DNA of 64,000 nucleotides from Chloroflexota bacterium (GTDB lineage Bacteria; Chloroflexota; Limnocylindria; QHBO01), in assembly GCA_052388515.1 (NCBI GenBank), contig JBQTHZ010000010.1:565-64564 (forward strand). Reading direction: 5' to 3'. The notes beneath the pieces are model-generated. The model saw only the letters and a list, made by a program, of their open reading frames with translations. It was not told where the DNA came from and made no database searches. Shown here in pieces: positions 30,185 through 43,770 of the stretch (its first letter is position 1; each line of letters opens with the position of its first letter). The position numbers were made by a program, and so were the translations under genes.

Positions 30185-31303
30185 TCACCGAGGGGCGGGA
30201 CGCGGCTCCCCTACGGTAGCGTCCGTCGACGACTGGTCGTCGAGCGAGCGGCGGATGCTGTCGCGGATCTCTTCGGCGCGCGACCGTGCCGGCATCGGCT
30301 CGGGCATCTCCATCGGCGCATCCGTCGGCGTCGGCGCGGGCTCGTCGGAGACGTGGCGTGGCGCCGAGCGCACCGCGCGACGCACGGCCAGCTCGCGGTC
30401 CTCGACGATTCGCTCCGCGATGCGGCGGACCTCGGTCGTGAGCCACAGGTAGGCGGTCGAATCGAGCGTGTAGTCGGCCTCCGCGAACGCGTGGATGCGG
30501 CCATCGCGCTGGAGCGAGCTGATCTGCTCGAACTGGGCCAGCGACCCGCGCTGGTAGACGCCGAATGCCAGTCCACCGTTGGCTCGCACGACCGACCACG
30601 CAGGGACATCGGACGGGCCGTCGGCGATGTAGATCATGTGCTCGAATGGCACACGACGAAGATCCGCCGAGAGTGCCGAGTTGACGTGGATCTCGGGCCG
30701 CTTGTTCGTGCCCTTGTTGATTTCGAACAACGCGCGCGTCTTGCTGGTGTTGTCGATCTGGTATCCGAGGGCCGTGATCTCGCTGCTCGGAAAGAGCTGC
30801 CGCTGCTCGGGCCTGACGTAGCCAGGCGGGTGGTGCGCCTCGATGAACTCGCACGCCCACACGTCCTCCACGTATCGGCGAATGGCGCTGCCCTCGATCA
30901 TGGGCCGCAGGCCGGTGCTGACCACGTAGTGCTCGAGCGTGACGTCCGCGCGCTGGAAGGCGGGCTCCTCCTGGACCGAATCGCGCAGCCTGGCAAGAAA
31001 GTCGGGCATCCCGGGGTGATAGGTCAGCTCGGCGCCGAGCTCGAGCAGCGTCGCATTCGACAGCCCCTTGAACACGCCTGCGCGGACGTACTCGAGGATG
31101 TGGTTGAGATACAGCGAGTCATCGGCGACACGCCGGGCGCCGTGGGCCAGGTAGAAGTCACCGAGCGCGTCGACCTCGTCCCAGAACGCACGTTCGTCCA
31201 CCCCGTAGCGCGCGAACAGCGGCGACTGCATGTTGCCCGGGATGAGCGTCTTGTCGAAGTCCCAGACGACGGCAATCACCGTCTGGCTGAAGGGTCCTGC
31301 CAT
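30185..31303 (-). CDS. HAD-superfamily hydrolase
   Basis: HAD motif I (VVWDFDKTL), motif III/IV (IYIADGPSDV) and a long cap region. The start is placed at MAGPFSQ (ATG 31301-31303). The C-terminal ~60 aa are low complexity. Confidence 0.7.
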   Translation of the reverse strand: MAGPFSQTVIAVVWDFDKTLIPGNMQSPLFARYGVDERAFWDEVDALGDFYLAHGARRVADDSLYLNHILEYVRAGVFKGLSNATLLELGAELTYHPGMPDFLARLRDSVQEEPAFQRADVTLEHYVVSTGLRPMIEGSAIRRYVEDVWACEFIEAHHPPGYVRPEQRQLFPSSEITALGYQIDNTSKTRALFEINKGTNKRPEIHVNSALSADLRRVPFEHMIYIADGPSDVPAWSVVRANGGLAFGVYQRGSLAQFEQISSLQRDGRIHAFAEADYTLDSTAYLWLTTEVRRIAERIVEDRELAVRRAVRSAPRHVSDEPAPTPTDAPMEMPEPMPARSRAEEIRDSIRRSLDDQSSTDATVGEPRPAPR

Positions 31304-36202: not shown

Positions 36203-36649
36203 TCAGGATTCGGCGACGACGCTCACGCTCAGGACAGCCTCCACGCCCGGCATCAGGCGCACGTCGATCTTGTAGTCACCGAGGGCCTTGATCGGCTCGC
36301 GCAGATGGAGCGCATGCCGATCCAGGGCGATGCCCTCGCGATTCACGAGCTCTCCGATCTGGTGCCCGGTCACGGCGCCGAAGAGGCGTCCGCGCTCGCC
36401 GGCCTTGACCGGTACCTCGAGCTTGAGCTCGCTGATCTTCGCGGCGGTCGCCTCGGCCTCGGCGCGCACGCCGCGGTCTCGCTCCTCGCGCTGATCCTTG
36501 TGGCGCTCCCAGTTCGCGATGGCTCCCCTGTCGGCGATCACAGCGGCACTGCTGGGCAGCAGGAAGTTTCGAGCGTAGCCGTCCTTGACGTCCTTCAGGT
36601 CTCCCTCGCGGCCGAGGCCCTTCACGTCGCGCTTCAGAATGACTCTCAT
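36203..36649 (-). CDS. rplI: 50S ribosomal protein L9
   Basis: 148 aa beginning MRVILKRDVKGLGREGDLKDVKDGYARNFLLP, the classical bL9 N-terminus. It lies immediately upstream of dnaB, as in many bacteria. Confidence 0.9.
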   Translation of the reverse strand: MRVILKRDVKGLGREGDLKDVKDGYARNFLLPSSAAVIADRGAIANWERHKDQREERDRGVRAEAEATAAKISELKLEVPVKAGERGRLFGAVTGHQIGELVNREGIALDRHALHLREPIKALGDYKIDVRLMPGVEAVLSVSVVAES

Positions 36650-37140
36650 TCGAGCTCCTTCGGTGCGGAGTGGTGGTGAGCGGTTCGTCGTCGCCGCCAC
36701 GTGGCGAGGGCCCGCTTCAGCTCGTCAGGATCGCGCAGACGACCGTAACGGTCCAGCAGCTCCGGCAGGTCGTCCCTGATCCGATCGAATCGGTCGCCCA
36801 TCAGGACGCGGAGGCGCGCAACGTCCCGATCCAGGTCGGCCGTACCGTTGCGGGCGCGTGCCGAGTGCTCGGCGCGCACTTCCGGCGGTGCGTTCTGGAT
36901 GAAGAGATCGAGCACCAGCAGCAGCACGGTGAGGTCGTCCGCCTGGCCGAGAATCGGTATCACGTCCGGGATCAGGTCGACCGGCAGCACCACGTAGGCG
37001 AGGGCGGCCGCCAGCATGCCCTTGAGACCGATGGGCGTACGCGGATCGCGAACGAGCCCCCACACCATGCGGGCATAGGTCGGGAGCTTGACGACGAGGC
37101 GCGCCATGCGCAGGTAGCGCGACGACGAGGACAGATTCAC
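36646..37140 (-). CDS. DUF1232 (YkvA-like) membrane protein
   Basis: The core LAAALAYVVLPVDLIPDVIPILGQADDLTVLLLVL is diagnostic of DUF1232. The gene is divergent from lexA. Confidence 0.6.
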   Translation of the reverse strand: MNLSSSSRYLRMARLVVKLPTYARMVWGLVRDPRTPIGLKGMLAAALAYVVLPVDLIPDVIPILGQADDLTVLLLVLDLFIQNAPPEVRAEHSARARNGTADLDRDVARLRVLMGDRFDRIRDDLPELLDRYGRLRDPDELKRALATWRRRRTAHHHSAPKELE

Positions 37141-37212: not shown

Positions 37213-37226
37213 AGAACATGCGTTCT
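37213..37226. promoter_or_regulatory. LexA (Cheo/SOS) box AGAACATGCGTTCT upstream of lexA
   Basis: GAAC-N4-GTTC palindrome 50 nt upstream of the lexA ATG, in the divergent intergenic region shared with the DUF1232 gene. Confidence 0.75.
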
Positions 37227-37275: not shown

Positions 37276-37929
37276 TTGACCAGGCACGATGCAGAGCGAC
37301 GACAGCGCATCCTCGACTGTATTGCGCAGACCGTGGAGGAACGCGGATACCCACCGTCGGTCCGCGAGATCGCCGATGCCGTCGGCCTCGCGTCGACGAG
37401 CGCTGTCCATCATCACCTGCTCGCCCTCGAGCGCGACGGTCTGCTCGAGCGCGGGACCCACTCCTCCAGGGCGTTGCGCCTGACCGCGCCGCGGCCGCAG
37501 GCGGCCGATCCGGCGAAGGTGACGCCGTTCCGGATGCCCGTCGAGCGTGACACCCTCACGCTGCCGGTGATGGGCGAGATCGCCGCCGGTCAGCCGATCG
37601 AGGCCTACGCAGATGCTTCCGAGACGCTCGCCGTCCCACGCTCGATGGAGGCGCGCGAGGACTCCTATGTCTTGCGGGTCCGCGGCAAGAGCATGATCGA
37701 TGCGCTCATCGACGACGGTGACTTCGTCATCGTCCAGCCGCAGGCCACTGCCCGCGACGGCGACATCGTCGTCGCCCTGCTCGAGGACAACGGCGTCACG
37801 CTCAAGCGCTACTTCATGGAGAAGGACCGCATCCGGCTTCAGCCGGCGAACGCCGAGATGGAGCCAATCTACGCCACCGAGGTCCAGATCCAGGGCAAGG
37901 TGGTCGGCGTCATCCGCCGCCTCGCCTGA
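37276..37929 (+). CDS. lexA: LexA repressor
   Basis: 217 aa with an N-terminal wHTH (SVREIADAVGLASTSAVHHHLLALERDGLLER), the AG cleavage site and an S24 peptidase domain (RVRGKSM...K). Confidence 0.9.
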   Translation: MTRHDAERRQRILDCIAQTVEERGYPPSVREIADAVGLASTSAVHHHLLALERDGLLERGTHSSRALRLTAPRPQAADPAKVTPFRMPVERDTLTLPVMGEIAAGQPIEAYADASETLAVPRSMEAREDSYVLRVRGKSMIDALIDDGDFVIVQPQATARDGDIVVALLEDNGVTLKRYFMEKDRIRLQPANAEMEPIYATEVQIQGKVVGVIRRLA

Positions 37930-37939
37930 TCAAAGCTGC

Positions 37940-39121
37940 ATGGCGCCCATCACGGCGCGCGAGCTGAATCGCGCCACGCTGGCGCGCCAGGGCCTGCTCG
38001 AGCCGATGGCCACGGTGACCGCCGGTGAGGCGGTCAGGCGGTTTGGATCATTACAGGCCCAGCATCCGGAATGGCCGCCCGTGGCGCTGGCATCGCGCGC
38101 TGCTGATGCGGCGACCTGCGATCTCACGGGCGGATTGACCCGCCGCGAGATCGTACGCAGCTCGCTGATGCGGAACACGATCCACGTCATCGCCACCGGC
38201 GACCTGTGGCCCATGTTCGCGGTGTGCCAGCCTCTTCGCCTCAACCAGTGGCGGCTGCTCATGAAGGCCGATCCCATCGACTCCACGCTCGGCAGGCAGA
38301 TGGCGGCCGCGCACCCCGCCGCCATCGCCGCGCTCCGCGAGCAACCTCGATCGTCGCTCGAGATCGACCGCCTCATGGGGGAGGAGCTCGGTCCTGGCAC
38401 CACGTCCGTTTCGCGACCGGCTCGGCGCGAGCCGGAGGCGCGCGTGGTGGTTCGGGCGGCCTGGCGCCACTTCTCCGCATTCGTACCGCTCGTGCACGTG
38501 CCGCACGACGGAGAAGGCTACGGCCGATCCAGGTACGCACTCGCCGCCGATTGGATCGGAGAGCAGCGGCCACCGGTGGATGAGGCAGGAGCACGCGCGC
38601 ACGTGGCTCGGCGGTACCTGGCCGCGTTCGGTCCTGCCAGCGTCGACGACCTCGTCGCGTACGTGGGGCGCGGCAAGGGCGGCATCGGGCCGTGGCGGCA
38701 CGCGGTTGCGTCGCTCGCGGGCGAGCTGATCGAGCTCCGCGACGAAGCGGGACGCACGCTGTACGACATCGGTGACGCTCCGCGCCCCGACGCGGATGTT
38801 CCGGTTCCGCCGCGCCTGCTGGCTCGTTGGGACAGCCTCCTGTTGTCGCATGCCCCGAAGCATCGAGGCCGGATCATCGCCGACACGCACCGGCCGGCCG
38901 TATTCAGCAAGAATGCAGACGTGCTTCCGACGTTCCTGGTGGATGGAGTGGTCGCCGGCACATGGGAGCTGTCAAGGGCCCCCGATCGCATCGCGATCGA
39001 ACTGCGACCGTTTGCCCGCCTCGCCCGCCCTGAGCGGTTCGCTCTCGAGTCGGAGGCGCAACGGGTCCTGGAGCTGCTTGCGCGCCACGCGTCGACACGT
39101 CAGATCGCGTTCGCACGCTGA
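37940..39121 (+). CDS. AlkZ/YcaQ-like winged-helix DNA glycosylase family protein (paralog 2), in the lexA operon
   Basis: 393 aa beginning MAPITARELNRATLARQGLLEP, paralogous to the 26977-28017 gene. It starts 10 nt after the lexA stop and ends 20 nt before dinB. Confidence 0.7.
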   Translation: MAPITARELNRATLARQGLLEPMATVTAGEAVRRFGSLQAQHPEWPPVALASRAADAATCDLTGGLTRREIVRSSLMRNTIHVIATGDLWPMFAVCQPLRLNQWRLLMKADPIDSTLGRQMAAAHPAAIAALREQPRSSLEIDRLMGEELGPGTTSVSRPARREPEARVVVRAAWRHFSAFVPLVHVPHDGEGYGRSRYALAADWIGEQRPPVDEAGARAHVARRYLAAFGPASVDDLVAYVGRGKGGIGPWRHAVASLAGELIELRDEAGRTLYDIGDAPRPDADVPVPPRLLARWDSLLLSHAPKHRGRIIADTHRPAVFSKNADVLPTFLVDGVVAGTWELSRAPDRIAIELRPFARLARPERFALESEAQRVLELLARHASTRQIAFAR

Positions 39122-39141
39122 CGGCTCGGCAGGACCGGACG

Positions 39142-40422
39142 ATGGTACGACGCCGACCGGACGCGCACCATGGCCAAGCGATGCGCACGATCATCCACGC
39201 CGATCTCGATGCCTTCTATGCCAGCGTCGAAGTGCTGGATGACCCTTCACTGAGGGGGAAACCCGTCATCGTCGGCGGCCGGCCCGACGAACGCGGGGTG
39301 GTGAGCGCGGCATCGTACGAGGCGCGCCGATACGGCGTTCAGTCCGCGATGCCGTTGCGCACCGCGGGACGGCGCTGCCCGCACGGCGTCTTTCTTCCGG
39401 GCCGGCCCGATCGATACCGCGAGGTGTCACGGCAGGTCATGGCCGTCGTTACCTCCTACACCCCGCTGGTCGAGCCGATCAGCCTGGACGAGGCATTCCT
39501 CGACGTGACCGCCAGCGCTGCGGCGTTCGGTGACGGACCGACCATTGCGCGCCGGATCAAGGAGCGCGTTCGCGACGAGATCGGGCTGGTGGTATCGGTC
39601 GGTGTCGCCACGAACAAGCTGTGCGCCAAGGTCGCCTCCGACCTGCGGAAGCCCGATGCGCTCGTGATCGTGGCGCCCGGCGACGAGGCCGGCTTCCTCG
39701 CACCGCTTCCCATCCGGCGACTCTGGGGTGTCGGGCCACAGGCACAGCAGGCGCTCGGCGACTATGGCGTCTCGACCATCGGCCAGCTGGCAGCCCTGGA
39801 CCCGGCCACGCTCGAGCGTCGCTTTGGACGGCACGGCGCCGCCCTGGCATCTCGGGCTCGCGGCATCGACACGGCCCGGGTGGAGCCGCTGCAGACGCCG
39901 AAGAGCGTCGGACACGAGCACACATACGACGTTGACAGCGCTGATGCCGGCCGGCTCGAGGCAACCCTTCTCGACCTCGCTGAATCGGTCGCCAGCCGCC
40001 TGCGGCGCCATGACCTCGCGGCCGGTGCCGTGCAGCTGAAGCTCCGCTACGAGGGGTTCGAGACGCTGACTCGCCAGGCACCGCTGCCCTACCAGACCCG
40101 CGACACCGACCCACTGTTCGACACGGGCGTCGCGCTGCTGCGTCGCACGCTGGTCGCGGGTCGCGGCGTGCGGCTGATCGGCCTCACGGCGATCTCGCTC
40201 TCCGCCGCGCAGCAGCTCACCCTGTTCGGCGCGCCCGAACGCGAGGACCGCCTGGCGCGCTCCATCGATGCCGTGCGGGAACGATTCGGCGACGGCGCCA
40301 TCACGCGCGCCCGACTGCTCGCCGAACGACCGCACCGACGCTTCGACTTCGGCGAGCGACCGCGAGTGAGCGCCGATGCGTCTGACGCGGGGGTTGACGA
40401 ACCGAACAGGCGTTCGGTATAG
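39142..40422 (+). CDS. dinB: DNA polymerase IV (Y-family translesion polymerase)
   Basis: IIHADLDAFYASVEVLDDPSLRGKPVIVGG and the YEAR.YGV.SAMP motifs of DinB. The alternative start is ATG 39181. The 3' end overlaps the SOS promoter of the downstream gene. Confidence 0.85.
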   Translation: MVRRRPDAHHGQAMRTIIHADLDAFYASVEVLDDPSLRGKPVIVGGRPDERGVVSAASYEARRYGVQSAMPLRTAGRRCPHGVFLPGRPDRYREVSRQVMAVVTSYTPLVEPISLDEAFLDVTASAAAFGDGPTIARRIKERVRDEIGLVVSVGVATNKLCAKVASDLRKPDALVIVAPGDEAGFLAPLPIRRLWGVGPQAQQALGDYGVSTIGQLAALDPATLERRFGRHGAALASRARGIDTARVEPLQTPKSVGHEHTYDVDSADAGRLEATLLDLAESVASRLRRHDLAAGAVQLKLRYEGFETLTRQAPLPYQTRDTDPLFDTGVALLRRTLVAGRGVRLIGLTAISLSAAQQLTLFGAPEREDRLARSIDAVRERFGDGAITRARLLAERPHRRFDFGERPRVSADASDAGVDEPNRRSV

Positions 40423-40450
40423 TCTCCGTCTGAATCGAACGCCTGTTCGA
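40394..40450 (+). promoter_or_regulatory. SOS promoter: -35 TTGACG (40394-40399), 18-nt spacer, -10 TATAGT (40418-40423) with two perfect LexA boxes CGAACAGGCGTTCG (40403-40416) and TCGAACGCCTGTTCGA (40435-40450)
   Basis: Box 1 lies in the spacer and box 2 just after the predicted TSS. The two boxes are reverse complements of each other. An AGGAGCA RBS precedes the downstream ATG at 40488. Confidence 0.75.
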
Positions 40451-40487
40451 GTGCCCGAGCAGGTTCCCCGCACCCAGGAGCAGACAC

Positions 40488-40751
40488 ATGGCACTCGTAC
40501 AGATCTCCCCCATCGAAGCGCACGTCCGCTGGGATCGGCACGCCAAGCGCCCGTCCGAGGTGCGCTGGAACGGTCATCATCTCCGCGTCGTGCAGCTCGA
40601 CGCAGTCCGCGACGAGCGATCCGCCTATCCGGCCGAGCGCGGCCCCCGCGTGACGTTCGTCCTGCGCACCACCGACGGTGGCCGGGCCTCCGTGGTCTAC
40701 GACGGCCGACGCAGGCGCTGGTTCCTGGAGGCAGTCGAGCGCGCCGCCTGA
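40488..40751 (+). CDS. small SOS-regulated protein of unknown function (87 aa, Arg-rich, no TM)
   Basis: Good RBS (AGGAGCA, 7-nt spacing) and a promoter with a double LexA operator. Followed by a perfect 8-bp hairpin terminator. No family recognised. Confidence 0.6.
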   Translation: MALVQISPIEAHVRWDRHAKRPSEVRWNGHHLRVVQLDAVRDERSAYPAERGPRVTFVLRTTDGGRASVVYDGRRRRWFLEAVERAA

Positions 40752-40774
40752 TCCGGCCCGCGACGCGCTTACAA

Positions 40775-40796
40775 TCGGCCCGGCGTCGTCCGGGCC
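40775..40796 (+). terminator. stem-loop CGGCCCGG-cgtcgt-CCGGGCCG after the small SOS ORF
   Basis: A perfect 8-bp GC stem 24 nt after the stop. No strong U-tract follows, as is common in high-GC genomes. Confidence 0.5.
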
Positions 40797-40839
40797 GATT
40801 CGCGCATCCGGCGGCCACCGCACCGAGGAACCGCCGCCG

Positions 40840-41478
40840 ATGGATACGCGCATCCCCGAGATGACCGTTCGCACGCTGGTCGAGCGCCTGGCGACCAGTG
40901 ATCCGGCACCGGGCGGGGGCAGCGCGGCCGCCGTGGCCGGCGCGATGGGGGCAGCGCTCGTCCAGATGGTCGTCGAGCTCACCATCGGCAGGCCCGCAGC
41001 GGAAGGTCATGAGGAGACGCTGGCGCAGATCCGGACGGCCGCCGCGGCATGGCAGTCGGAGCTGATCAACCTCGCGGAGCTCGACGCGAACGCCTATGAC
41101 GCGGTGGTCCGCGCCCGGCGGCTGCCGCGGGACTCCGAGCTCGCGCGAAACGCCCGGAGCGTCCAGGTCGATGGCGCTGTGCGCGAGGCGACACGAATTC
41201 CACTCGCCACCGCCCAGGCGGCCTCGGCGGTGCTCGATCTCGCCGAGCAGGCCGCGCCGATCGGCAACCGTCATGCAATCAGCGACGTGGGTGTGGCCGG
41301 GCTGCTTGCCGTATCTGCGCTGCGCGGAGCCGCGCTGAACGTCCAGATCAACCTGCCCTATCTCACCTCTGACGAGGGCCTGCGCAACGAAGCGGCCGCC
41401 GAGATCGGCAGCCTCCTTGCGAACGCGGACGAGCGAGACATGGCGGTCCGACGCGCAGTCGCGGAGCGTTTTCGGTGA
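40840..41478 (+). CDS. formiminotetrahydrofolate cyclodeaminase / methenyl-THF cyclohydrolase domain protein (FTCD_C family)
   Basis: ~212 aa with TLVERLATSDPAPGGGSAAAVAGAMGAALVQMV, the hallmark start of the FTCD C-terminal cyclodeaminase domain. GAGGAA RBS. The stop overlaps the folD GTG start. Confidence 0.75.
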   Translation: MDTRIPEMTVRTLVERLATSDPAPGGGSAAAVAGAMGAALVQMVVELTIGRPAAEGHEETLAQIRTAAAAWQSELINLAELDANAYDAVVRARRLPRDSELARNARSVQVDGAVREATRIPLATAQAASAVLDLAEQAAPIGNRHAISDVGVAGLLAVSALRGAALNVQINLPYLTSDEGLRNEAAAEIGSLLANADERDMAVRRAVAERFR

Positions 41479-42326
41479 CCGCTCGCCGGCTGGACGGGCG
41501 GGACCTCGCCTCCCATCTGCGGCGTGACCTTGAGCACCGCGTCGAGCGGCTGACGGATGGTGACCCCGACGCTTCGCCACGGCTCGCCATCCTCCGATCC
41601 GGATCGAGCGAAGCGGCGGCGCTCTATGCCGCCAGCCTGGAACGTGTCGCGCGGAGCGTTGGCGTGGCGCCGCTGCTCATGGCCGACGCTGCGGAATCGT
41701 TGCTGAAGGTCATCGGTCGCCTCAACGAGGATCCGCACGTGGCCGGCATCGTCGTCGCCCAGCCCCTCTCCGACGCGGCGCACGGCCGGCGCCTGGTCGA
41801 GCAGATCGACCCGGCGAAAGACGTCGACGGTGCGACGCCGACGAACGCGGGGTGGTTGGCGCGCGGGGAGCCGGCCTTCGTGCCGGCGACGGCGCTGGCC
41901 GTGATCGCCATCCTGGAGGCCTACGGCATCCCGCTCAGCGGCCGGCGCGCGGTGATCATCGGCCGCTCGGCGGTGGTCGGACGACCGGTTGCGTCATTGC
42001 TGGTCGCTCGCGACGCAACCGTGGTGATCTGTCACCGCTCGACGCGAAACCTCGCCCGCGAGACGCGGCGTGCCGAGATCCTGGTCGCCGCGGCCGGCGT
42101 CCCGGGCCTCGTGCGACCAGAGATGGTGAACCGTTCGTCAGTGATCATCGACTGTGGAATCAATGCCGTCGAGGCAGGGATCGTGGGAGACGTCGACTTC
42201 GCCACGGTTGCGCCGGTGGTTCGGGCCATCAGCCCGGTGCCGGGTGGAGTCGGCCCGGTGACTCCGATGATGGTCCTGCGTCAGACGGTGGAGTCTGCCG
42301 AACGAGCTGCGTCAGCGCGCCAGTAG
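41475..42326 (+). CDS. folD: bifunctional methylenetetrahydrofolate dehydrogenase / methenyl-THF cyclohydrolase
   Basis: 283 aa with a GTG start, Rossmann GRS.VVGRPVA and a PGGVGPVT C-terminal motif. Confidence 0.9.
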   Translation: MTARRLDGRDLASHLRRDLEHRVERLTDGDPDASPRLAILRSGSSEAAALYAASLERVARSVGVAPLLMADAAESLLKVIGRLNEDPHVAGIVVAQPLSDAAHGRRLVEQIDPAKDVDGATPTNAGWLARGEPAFVPATALAVIAILEAYGIPLSGRRAVIIGRSAVVGRPVASLLVARDATVVICHRSTRNLARETRRAEILVAAAGVPGLVRPEMVNRSSVIIDCGINAVEAGIVGDVDFATVAPVVRAISPVPGGVGPVTPMMVLRQTVESAERAASARQ

Positions 42327-42603: not shown

Positions 42604-42629
42604 AAATGACGGACGCGCTGACGTCATTT
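42604..42629. promoter_or_regulatory. inverted repeat AAATGACG-N10-CGTCATTT upstream of the 42793 gene
   Basis: An 8-bp perfect arm palindrome in a lower-GC stretch ~165 nt upstream of the ATG. Candidate operator. Confidence 0.3.
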
Positions 42630-42792
42630 GGCGGATGACAATGACCACCTCGCCAAGGCCCATCGTGGGCAACAACGTGACACGACCGAGCGATGTTCGC
42701 ACTCCATCGGCCCGGTCTCGACGTCAACGGCACTCGGCTGCCCGCCGATCGCCCCGAGACGGTCGGCTCAGCCAATCGAAGAGGAGACCCAC

Positions 42793-43770
42793 ATGACTGA
42801 CCGGGAATTCGTCATTGAGCTTGAGGACGAGGCCGAAGGCCACTCCGGCCGAGGCATCGTCGAGACCGACGACGCCGCATGGCTGGAGCAGAAGCTCCGA
42901 AGCGACAGCGGCACCAAGCGGCTGCGCGTACTGCCCGACGATCGCGATGACACCGAGGGCCACGTCAGCGACATCCTCGTTCAGGTCATCCTCGAGGACG
43001 AGGACGACACCGAGGGCCACGCGATCGCGATCCACTTCCCGTCGCGTGCGGAGGCCGACGCCTTCCGCAGGCGCCTTCTGGTGACGGGCGTGCTCGTCGG
43101 CACGGTGGCGCTCGGCGCGGCTGGTGGCGTGGGGCTGTCGGCACTGCAGACCGGCGGAGATGCCACCGGGGCGAACGCCGCGGCGATCCAGGCCGACGCG
43201 AACTACCAGGCGGCTGCCGCCGCCGAGGCGGAGCGTCAGGGGGCGGCCGGCGCGGCGCTTCAGGCACAGGCCAATTATGAGGACGCCTCCGCGGCCGTCG
43301 CGGAGCGCCAGGCAGGTTCCGGTGCTGCGGCTCAGACCGGACCGCTGGACGCCCACGAGGCGCCGGCGTTCGAGGGCACGAACCTCAGCGCTGCCGACCA
43401 GGCATACGCCGATCGGCTCAGCGGACAGGCTGCAGGGACCCAGGTCGGACCGCTGGACGCCCACGAGGCGCCGGCGTTTCAGCAGTCGGCATCCTCGACG
43501 GATGCCGATCGCGACATCGGCATCATGGACGGCTCCGGTGCGAATGCGGCGACGCAGGTCGGACCGATGGACGCCCACGAGGCCCCCGCGTTTCAGCAGT
43601 CGGCAACCTCGACGGATGCCGATCGCGACATCGGCATCATGGACAGCTCCGGTGCGGATGCGGCGACGCAGGTCGGACCGATGGACGCCCACGAGGCGCC
43701 CGCCTTCCAGTCATCGACCACCGACGACGGCGAGAAGGTGCGCGGTACCGGTGGCCCGACGCCGCGGTGA
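42793..43770 (+). CDS. hypothetical membrane-anchored protein with DDTEGH pair and four tandem ~40-aa repeats (QVGP[LM]DAHEAPAFQQS..TDADRDIGIMD)
   Basis: GAGGAG RBS. An acidic N-domain with two DDTEGH motifs, then one TM segment, then 4 near-identical repeats encoded by ~120-bp DNA tandem repeats. Confidence 0.55.
   Translation: MTDREFVIELEDEAEGHSGRGIVETDDAAWLEQKLRSDSGTKRLRVLPDDRDDTEGHVSDILVQVILEDEDDTEGHAIAIHFPSRAEADAFRRRLLVTGVLVGTVALGAAGGVGLSALQTGGDATGANAAAIQADANYQAAAAAEAERQGAAGAALQAQANYEDASAAVAERQAGSGAAAQTGPLDAHEAPAFEGTNLSAADQAYADRLSGQAAGTQVGPLDAHEAPAFQQSASSTDADRDIGIMDGSGANAATQVGPMDAHEAPAFQQSATSTDADRDIGIMDSSGADAATQVGPMDAHEAPAFQSSTTDDGEKVRGTGGPTPR
43330..43730 (+). repeat. ~120-bp tandem DNA repeats (3-4 copies) inside the 42793-43770 CDS
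   Basis: Near-identical units ...gcgacgcaggtcggaccgatggacgcccacgaggcScccgcSttYcag... Boundaries are approximate. Confidence 0.6.

Follow-up and report, generated by a model that had tools for sequence, protein, structure and literature searches.

What does a short orphan gene do when it lies directly downstream of a translesion polymerase gene and is preceded by two perfect LexA boxes? This question is raised by a 64,000-nt stretch of DNA (hereafter, the window) from a Chloroflexota bacterium (contig JBQTHZ010000010.1, positions 565 to 64,564), in which the Y-family polymerase gene dinB is followed by an 87-codon open reading frame (ORF), referred to here as ORF87. We find that ORF87 belongs to a large protein family of the class Limnocylindria. 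The comparative data leave little doubt that the gene forms a monocistronic unit that LexA would repress via two operators and that would be derepressed after damage. A role of the product alongside DinB is proposed tentatively.

Judged from its sequence and that of its relatives, ORF87 is a real gene. This view is supported by the codon-position entropy (0.60/0.50/1.23) and the median pairwise ratio of nonsynonymous to synonymous substitutions (dN/dS, 0.28), both calculated on 61 gap-free coding sequences, by a protein length constrained to 85–93 residues, and by the existence of more than 1,000 family clusters at 90% identity. The dN/dS value indicates that the ORF, and not only the boxes upstream of it, is conserved under purifying selection. 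A word-indexed search detected 255 relatives. Among the 120 matches listed, identities range from 77 to 93%, nearly all proteins are exactly 87 residues long, and the named sources are Chloroflexota or Candidatus (Ca.) Limnocylindria metagenome-assembled genomes (MAGs). Scanning of species-representative genomes revealed 80 loci (45–92% identity), and 87 clusters at E ≤ 0.001, mostly 52–170 residues in length, were obtained when 1.84 billion representatives were searched exhaustively with a profile. Profile searches seeded with distant members added more than 1,082 and 381 further clusters at 90% identity. All of these are unnamed or annotated as “hypothetical” and lack Pfam domains; where a source is named, it is Limnocylindria or Limnocylindrales. 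Every family cluster with a taxonomic name, out of more than 1,000 clusters, comes from Ca. Limnocylindria (Chloroflexota); the family appears to be large and confined to this one class. No match was obtained in a tblastn search of ORF87 against plasmids.

Some MAGs labelled as Steroidobacteraceae, Binatia, Angelobacter, Pleomorphomonadaceae or Vicinamibacterales bear Limnocylindria-type lexA-dinB-ORF87-folD contigs (loci L011, L012, L026, L047, L052, L065, L079 and L085), probably as a result of binning contamination or mislabelling. Domain fusions were considered as Rosetta-stone evidence and rejected, as most of the longer matches that we inspected arise from a frameshift joining the ORF to the FTCD_C gene that follows it. 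Of the others, one is chimeric, its N-terminus being peptidase-like and unrelated, and another results from upstream read-through.

The preliminary description of this locus, made from the letters of the window, proposed a TTGACG-18-TATAGT promoter with two perfect LexA boxes bracketing the -10 element. Both boxes and both hexamers are present (Table 1), and this promoter is the sole sigma-70-like match across positions 39000–42000, where 0.1 matches are expected from shuffled sequences. The promoter scan found no minus-strand promoter in the same interval. The motif GAAC-N4-GTTC, which is the LexA motif of Firmicutes and Actinobacteria and of which Chloroflexi have variants (PMC4951493), occurs in four copies in the window, compared with 0.48 expected. 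Box 1 and box 2 start 33 bp apart, and box 2 corresponds to approximately +7 to +18 of the predicted ORF87 transcript, the start of which would lie around 40429–40433. The dinB frame extends over the -35 hexamer and box 1, and its stop codon falls within the -10 hexamer. Box 2 had also been described as the reverse complement of box 1. This relation is largely uninformative, because the LexA site is itself palindromic and only the 4-nt spacers are complementary; since the box-1 spacer varies freely among relatives, we do not regard the exact complementarity as meaningful. The same inverted repeat caused the only signals, all noise, in an Rfam scan of positions 40300–40950. One of the four perfect copies of the motif, at 31184–31195, lies inside a HAD-family hydrolase ORF (minus strand) and is probably a chance match.

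The two-box promoter is widely conserved. All main-clade loci (at least 52% identity, approximately 70 species) feature TTGAC[AG], 4 nt, GAAC-N4-GTTC, 1–2 nt and TATnnT, in this order, and a second perfect box starts 30–36 bp beyond the start of the first, most commonly at 33 bp. Three deep subfamilies (30–45% protein identity; L086–L090, L093 and L094) retain the same two-box organization. At least one perfect box is found upstream of every ORF87-bearing locus with a readable upstream region, which includes all loci but one, and approximately 70 loci have two. Relatives hence keep both the ORF and the boxes, near dinB, and the comparative data support the earlier view of a self-contained, LexA-controlled unit with two operators that encodes a small non-membrane protein beside this gene.

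A sub-clade at 45–50% identity deviates from this pattern, as box 1 is kept in the spacer, box 2 is gone, and the ATG lies approximately 7 nt past the -10 hexamer. This arrangement implies that ORF87 mRNA would be leaderless in the sub-clade. Because the retained box 1 is so closely followed by the start codon, ORF87 itself appears to be the regulated target, rather than an antisense or neighbouring transcript. In these single-box loci (L070, L072, L073, L075, L077–L082, L084 and L085), the promoter is located approximately 45 nt before the ORF and is embedded in the dinB 3′ end. A different element, the palindrome GTGACA-N7-TGTCAC, is found at the end of dinB, approximately 50 nt upstream of the -35 hexamer, in the Limnocylindrales loci L086–L090, and is degenerate in L093 and L094. 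It could be the binding site of another regulator or a weak hairpin.

In the 5′ untranslated region (UTR), the right half of box 2, together with the box 2 spacer, may pair with a conserved CGRRCAGG sequence located just downstream to form a stem-loop. The structure was supplied by hand and scored on 65 distinct sequences, using slid registers and 500 shuffles as controls. Pairing is observed in 91% of cells, compared with 33–43% in slid registers, and the 17 double-change cells were reached by none of the 500 shuffles. Positions facing the two U's show A/G variation only. RNAalifold, when run on the 5′ UTR, returned only the box palindrome and did not retrieve the stem-loop. Taken together, there is moderate support for a 5′-proximal stem-loop in the predicted ORF87 mRNA, and its conservation would mean that box 2 is transcribed. 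The ribosome-binding site reported earlier is also found, as AGGAGC, ahead of an ATG at 40488.

The 3′ side of the unit differs from the preliminary description, in which a perfect 8-bp terminator hairpin was assigned to it. The stem has 11 bp, and the hairpin is not a textbook terminator because it lacks a U tract and overlaps the conserved TACAAT. It may possibly act as the ORF87 terminator, form the 5′ end of FTCD_C mRNA, or both. In L087 and L088, both from Limnocylindrales, the GTG start of FTCD_C is located 7 nt past TACAAT, which implies that the FTCD_C transcript would be leaderless in some members of this group. Since TACAAT is conserved, and lies so close to the FTCD_C start in these loci, the downstream one-carbon genes probably have their own promoter. 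ORF87 is therefore best read as monocistronic, having its own promoter and being followed by a separate promoter element for the next gene.

Table 1 Position and basis of the features assigned to the ORF87 locus and to the upstream genes. Coordinates are those of the window; predicted elements are indicated as such.
Feature	Position	Strand	Basis or remark
lexA promoter, single LexA box	37214–37225	.	Within TTGACA...TACGGT, 50 nt before lexA
lexA, first gene of a probable lexA-alkZ-like-dinB operon	37276–37929	+	Pfam LexA_DNA_bind and Peptidase_S24
dinB, Y-family DNA polymerase IV, directly upstream of ORF87; 3′ end overlaps the ORF87 promoter	39142–40422	+	Pfam IMS, IMS_C and IMS_HHH
ORF87 promoter, -35 hexamer TTGACG	40394–40399	+	Promoter scan; TTGAC[AG] invariant in relatives
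LexA box 1, CGAACAGGCGTTCG, within the -35/-10 spacer	40403–40416 (12-nt core 40404–40415)	.	Perfect GAAC-N4-GTTC
ORF87 promoter, -10 hexamer TATAGT; 18-nt spacer to -35; includes the dinB stop TAG (40420–40422)	40418–40423	+	
LexA box 2, TCGAACGCCTGTTCGA, 12 nt past the -10 hexamer	40435–40450 (12-nt core 40437–40448)	.	Perfect GAAC-N4-GTTC
Predicted 5′-UTR stem-loop, GCCUGUUCG, loop AGUGCC, CGAGCAGGU; built from box 2 spacer and right half	40441–40464	+	Pairing and double changes in 65 sequences
Ribosome-binding site AGGAGC, 6 nt before the ATG	40476–40481	+	Conserved in the alignment of relatives
ORF87, 87-residue basic orphan protein, all-beta in the model, Ala-Ala C-terminus	40488–40751	+	dN/dS, conservation, AlphaFold2
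TACAAT, probably the -10 hexamer of FTCD_C-folD, which follows	40770–40775	+	More widely conserved than the hairpin
GC-rich hairpin of 11 bp, AATCGGCCCGG/CCGGGCCGATT, lacking a U tract	40773–40800	+	In most close relatives

The ORF87 product has a mass of approximately 10 kDa and contains 16 Arg residues. Its isoelectric point (pI) is 11.2 (family median 10.5), and its grand average of hydropathy (GRAVY) is -0.66; the lack of a hydrophobic segment agrees with the earlier description of an Arg-rich ORF with no transmembrane (TM) segment. Two AlphaFold2 runs, based on 28 and 51 sequences, produced the same six-strand antiparallel topology (strands at residues 5–16, 21–27, 30–42, 54–61, 66–72 and 77–84), with predicted local distance difference test (pLDDT) scores of 87.9 and 86.8 and a predicted template modelling (pTM) score of approximately 0.75. 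The loop encompassing residues 43–53 is the least confident internal segment of the models, yet its sequence is the most conserved, in the motif RDE-x2-AYP-x3-GPR (R41-D/E-E43-x2-A-Y-P-x3-G-P-R54). Across the diverse alignment, no variation is seen at R41, E43, A46, G52, P53, R54 and W78, and very little at D42, Y47 and P48. As the loop is flexible in the model yet invariant in sequence, the modelling suggests that the conserved surface loop 41–54 is a binding epitope. The C-terminus is also peculiar. Ala-Ala is found at the end of 362/388 members (93%), despite the varied length and sequence of the tail, whereas this ending occurs in only one of the 97 long window ORFs used as controls. C-terminal -AA is recognized by ClpX, and the terminus may, by analogy, be an ssrA-like degron.

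Database searches support the earlier statement that the protein belongs to no characterized family, as searches of Pfam, NCBIfam, PHROG, PADLOC and PDB gave no significant relative. The window protein had no match in the first four collections. PDB sequence-profile searches returned nothing below E 0.35, and the best Foldseek hits had E-values of 0.58 (PDB) and 0.068 (BFVD). Pfam was also run on 33 + 30 family members, and revealed sub-threshold matches to DUF6504 and scattered single matches to small beta-barrel families (DUF1918, PUA_4, RIFT barrel and BT_MCC). DUF6504 (PF20114) is the only recurrent family. It is weakly matched by 4 of the 33 members and by the distant members P0174 and P0204, corresponding to 6 of 53 distinct members; all matches are sub-threshold, the best one (L036, residues 11–84) scoring 15.9 bits (E 0.015) against a gathering threshold of 24.2 bits. 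DUF6504 was not matched by the window protein itself. The resemblance concerns a family that is itself uncharacterized, and our search for literature on DUF6504/PF20114 retrieved none.

Named candidates were compared individually. A YolD/UmuD-like accessory factor had been suggested earlier; this suggestion found no support, as no Pfam YolD or S24 match was detected in the 33 members at E ≤ 10. When the family profile was aligned by hhalign with a bona fide YolD-like protein (YolD, PF08863), encoded on a B. subtilis plasmid beside uvrX (Pfam YolD 1.7e-19), the probability was 0.07%. YolD was rejected also by position, since a YolD-like gene would immediately precede the polymerase gene and share its transcript, whereas ORF87 follows dinB and is driven by a promoter of its own. 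UmuD and other S24 peptidases were excluded by the lack of a Pfam match and of a fold match, and SulA by the lack of Pfam, NCBIfam and SulA-like PDB matches. The membrane inhibitors YneA, SosA, ChiZ and DivS do not fit either, considering the hydropathy of the product, the lack of any hydrophobic stretch or LysM match, and the location of the gene, which is not beside lexA.

Upstream of dinB, an AlkZ-like DNA glycosylase gene (37990–39121, plus strand; Pfam 8.6e-56) sits between lexA and dinB with short gaps, suggesting that lexA, alkZ and dinB form a LexA-controlled operon. A perfect GAAC-N4-GTTC also precedes lexA in the relatives L001, L003, L086, L087, L093 and L094. The alkZ gene is absent from the lexA-dinB interval in many relatives. 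The order lexA, (alkZ-like), dinB, ORF87, FTCD_C, folD is found in nearly all loci. The end of dinB lies less than 400 bp upstream of ORF87 in 83/85 loci, including loci from which lexA and alkZ have moved away; the location of the ORF directly downstream of dinB, noted earlier for the window, is a general feature. Where lexA and alkZ have moved or are inverted, the block dinB-ORF87-FTCD_C-folD(-fhs) is still intact. In 18 loci, dinB has neither an upstream lexA nor a LexA box within 250 bp, one mismatch being allowed, while the boxes of ORF87 are always present.

On the other side of lexA, a divergent gene for a DUF1232 membrane protein (36646–37140, minus strand; Pfam 3e-14) is followed by rplI and dnaB, and this arrangement is kept in relatives. 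The DUF1232 gene holds the position that yneA, sosA or chiZ occupies beside lexA in Gram-positives, and is for this reason a rival candidate for the role of SOS division inhibitor. A separate feature of the window is a 114-bp unit repeated 2.4 times at 93% identity (43437–43710) inside an ORF of 380 residues with no Pfam match (42628–43770). The repeat encodes GPMDAHEAPAFQQS...DADRDIGIMD segments.

How the unit might work can be outlined as follows. In an undamaged cell, LexA dimers would occupy both operators. The spacer operator would exclude RNA polymerase, and the box 2 operator would block promoter escape. The latter may also stop read-through from dinB, because there is no terminator between dinB and ORF87. 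As the box starts are approximately 33 bp apart, which corresponds to about three helical turns, both dimers would lie on one face of the DNA; we infer that repression by the two operators would be cooperative and very tight. Following DNA damage, RecA-stimulated self-cleavage of LexA would free the ORF87 promoter, and the conserved 5′ stem-loop would probably stabilize the mRNA. The product would be a basic, short-lived cytoplasmic protein of 10 kDa, acting via the conserved loop. Upon the return of LexA, the putative Ala-Ala degron would ensure fast removal by ClpXP-type proteases. In the reading that we tentatively favour, ORF87 would be an SOS-dependent partner or modulator of DNA polymerase IV (Pol IV) or of Pol IV substrate DNA, and would confer damage-dependence even where dinB has no LexA site.

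That ORF87 acts in the damage-tolerance (translesion) pathway of its neighbour DinB is thus a possibility to be held with reserve. The main argument for a functional tie is the persistence of dinB beside ORF87, along with the 18 loci in which dinB is box-less. Several observations weigh against such a tie. The main caveat is that FTCD_C is an equally constant neighbour, as it starts within 500 bp downstream of ORF87 in 80/81 loci, and synteny in Limnocylindria may reflect inertia rather than function. No similarity to known polymerase accessory factors (YolD, UmuD) was found, no beta-clamp-type motif was seen in ORF87, by inspection only, and no dinB-ORF87 fusion occurs among the longer matches inspected. 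Moreover, ORF87 is not simply a subunit gene of the dinB operon, because it has its own promoter and its operator strength is unlike that of lexA-alkZ-dinB. The degron, finally, is a putative one, proposed from a sequence analogy. The constancy of FTCD_C would also suit the idea that the SOS promoter mainly serves FTCD_C-folD-fhs by read-through, increasing the supply of nucleotide precursors after damage, with ORF87 having a secondary role, for instance as a leader or regulatory peptide; the hairpin lacks a U tract, and termination may leak. This idea is very improbable in view of the full-length purifying selection acting on ORF87, its invariant residues and its confidently predicted fold, and because the conserved TACAAT provides the one-carbon genes with a promoter of their own, from which transcripts would be leaderless in some lineages.

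Two further explanations were considered. ORF87 may be a nucleic-acid-binding factor involved in growth arrest or protection, following a SymE-like logic and binding the nucleoid or RNA instead of one particular repair enzyme, or may modulate RecA filaments or LexA in the manner of DinI or RecX. We consider this rather unlikely, though the protein is basic, carries a run of four Arg residues before the invariant W78, is modelled as all-beta with no enzymatic signature, and is subject to layered control (two operators, 5′ stem-loop and putative degron). Charge is not strictly conserved, since the pI is close to neutral (6.6) in one member or more. Neither an antisense partner nor an antitoxin gene was found, nor a minus-strand promoter across positions 39000–42000. 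Alternatively, ORF87 could be the SOS division (checkpoint) inhibitor of the class, a cytoplasmic SulA analogue that binds FtsZ or another divisome protein via the loop, with repression and degron keeping undamaged cells safe. Like all known SOS division inhibitors, ORF87 is small, lineage-restricted and orphan; two operators and a putative degron would suit a toxic product; and the gene is located 2.5 kb from lexA, with which Gram-positive inhibitors typically co-localize (PMC6851548). Nevertheless, this function seems improbable. All characterized inhibitors of Gram-positives cross the membrane through one TM segment and have their C-terminus outside the cell (PMC6851548), and ORF87 has neither TM segment nor LysM domain. 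The place divergent from lexA is taken by the DUF1232 gene, while ORF87 has the same orientation as lexA and lies 2.5 kb downstream of it. In Limnocylindrales, where lexA is separated and inverted, the distance is larger, and dinB still adjoins ORF87. Pfam also gave no SulA family match. The remaining probability is that the protein does something else.

Limnocylindria are abundant uncultured Chloroflexota of soil and freshwater. Our literature search on the DNA-damage response of this class retrieved nothing. Against this background, it is quite conceivable, if short of probable, that ORF87 represents a new family of Limnocylindria-specific cytoplasmic SOS effectors. Two versions can be envisaged: a damage-induced regulatory protein dedicated to a DinB-type polymerase, which would be the first such partner and whose fold lacks any solved relative, or a division/replication checkpoint protein that is neither SulA-like nor membrane-bound. 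In either version, damage-dependence would be supplied by a degron-tagged 10-kDa protein, and not by the polymerase gene. A Pol IV modulator of this kind would provide a new way to make translesion synthesis damage-dependent when dinB escapes LexA control, whereas a checkpoint protein would be a rare cytoplasmic one. Throughout the class, the locus exemplifies unusually stringent control of an SOS gene, which would be exerted by a pair of phased operators, a stem-loop in the 5′ UTR and a putative C-terminal degron. ORF87 is also a small, defined target, for which Bacillus, Corynebacterium and Mycobacterium, which share the LexA motif, are possible heterologous hosts.

The protein family of ORF87 is new, but the locus is not a novel type of system: its regulatory frame is familiar, and several known genes share parts of it. 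For instance, E. coli SymE is SOS-induced, basic and beta-rich, is controlled at multiple levels and is proteolysed. As YolD-like and UmuD genes, ORF87 is small, LexA-controlled and located beside a Y-family polymerase gene. It is not homologous to them, is located downstream and has its own promoter, and its neighbour is of the DinB/Pol IV type rather than of the UmuC/UvrX type. Gram-positive SOS inhibitors span the membrane once, expose their C-terminus outside the cell and mostly carry LysM, and are typically co-localized with lexA, from which the inhibitor gene is divergent in S. aureus (PMC6851548). ORF87 resembles YneA, SosA, ChiZ and DivS in being small, lineage-specific, LexA-repressed, encoded near lexA and, putatively, removed post-translationally (PMC6851548). 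It differs from these proteins in lacking TM, LysM and extracellular parts, in not being divergent from lexA and in being linked to dinB. In E. coli, recN has three SOS boxes, and the C-terminus of RecN is recognized by ClpXP (PMC10714372). RecN, an SMC-like ATPase, is unrelated to ORF87, which is a beta protein of 87 residues with a putative degron. The logic of control is nevertheless similar, as in both cases several LexA operators (two in ORF87) are combined with a C-terminal proteolysis signal (putatively Ala-Ala in ORF87), an arrangement by which the product would be present only during DNA damage.

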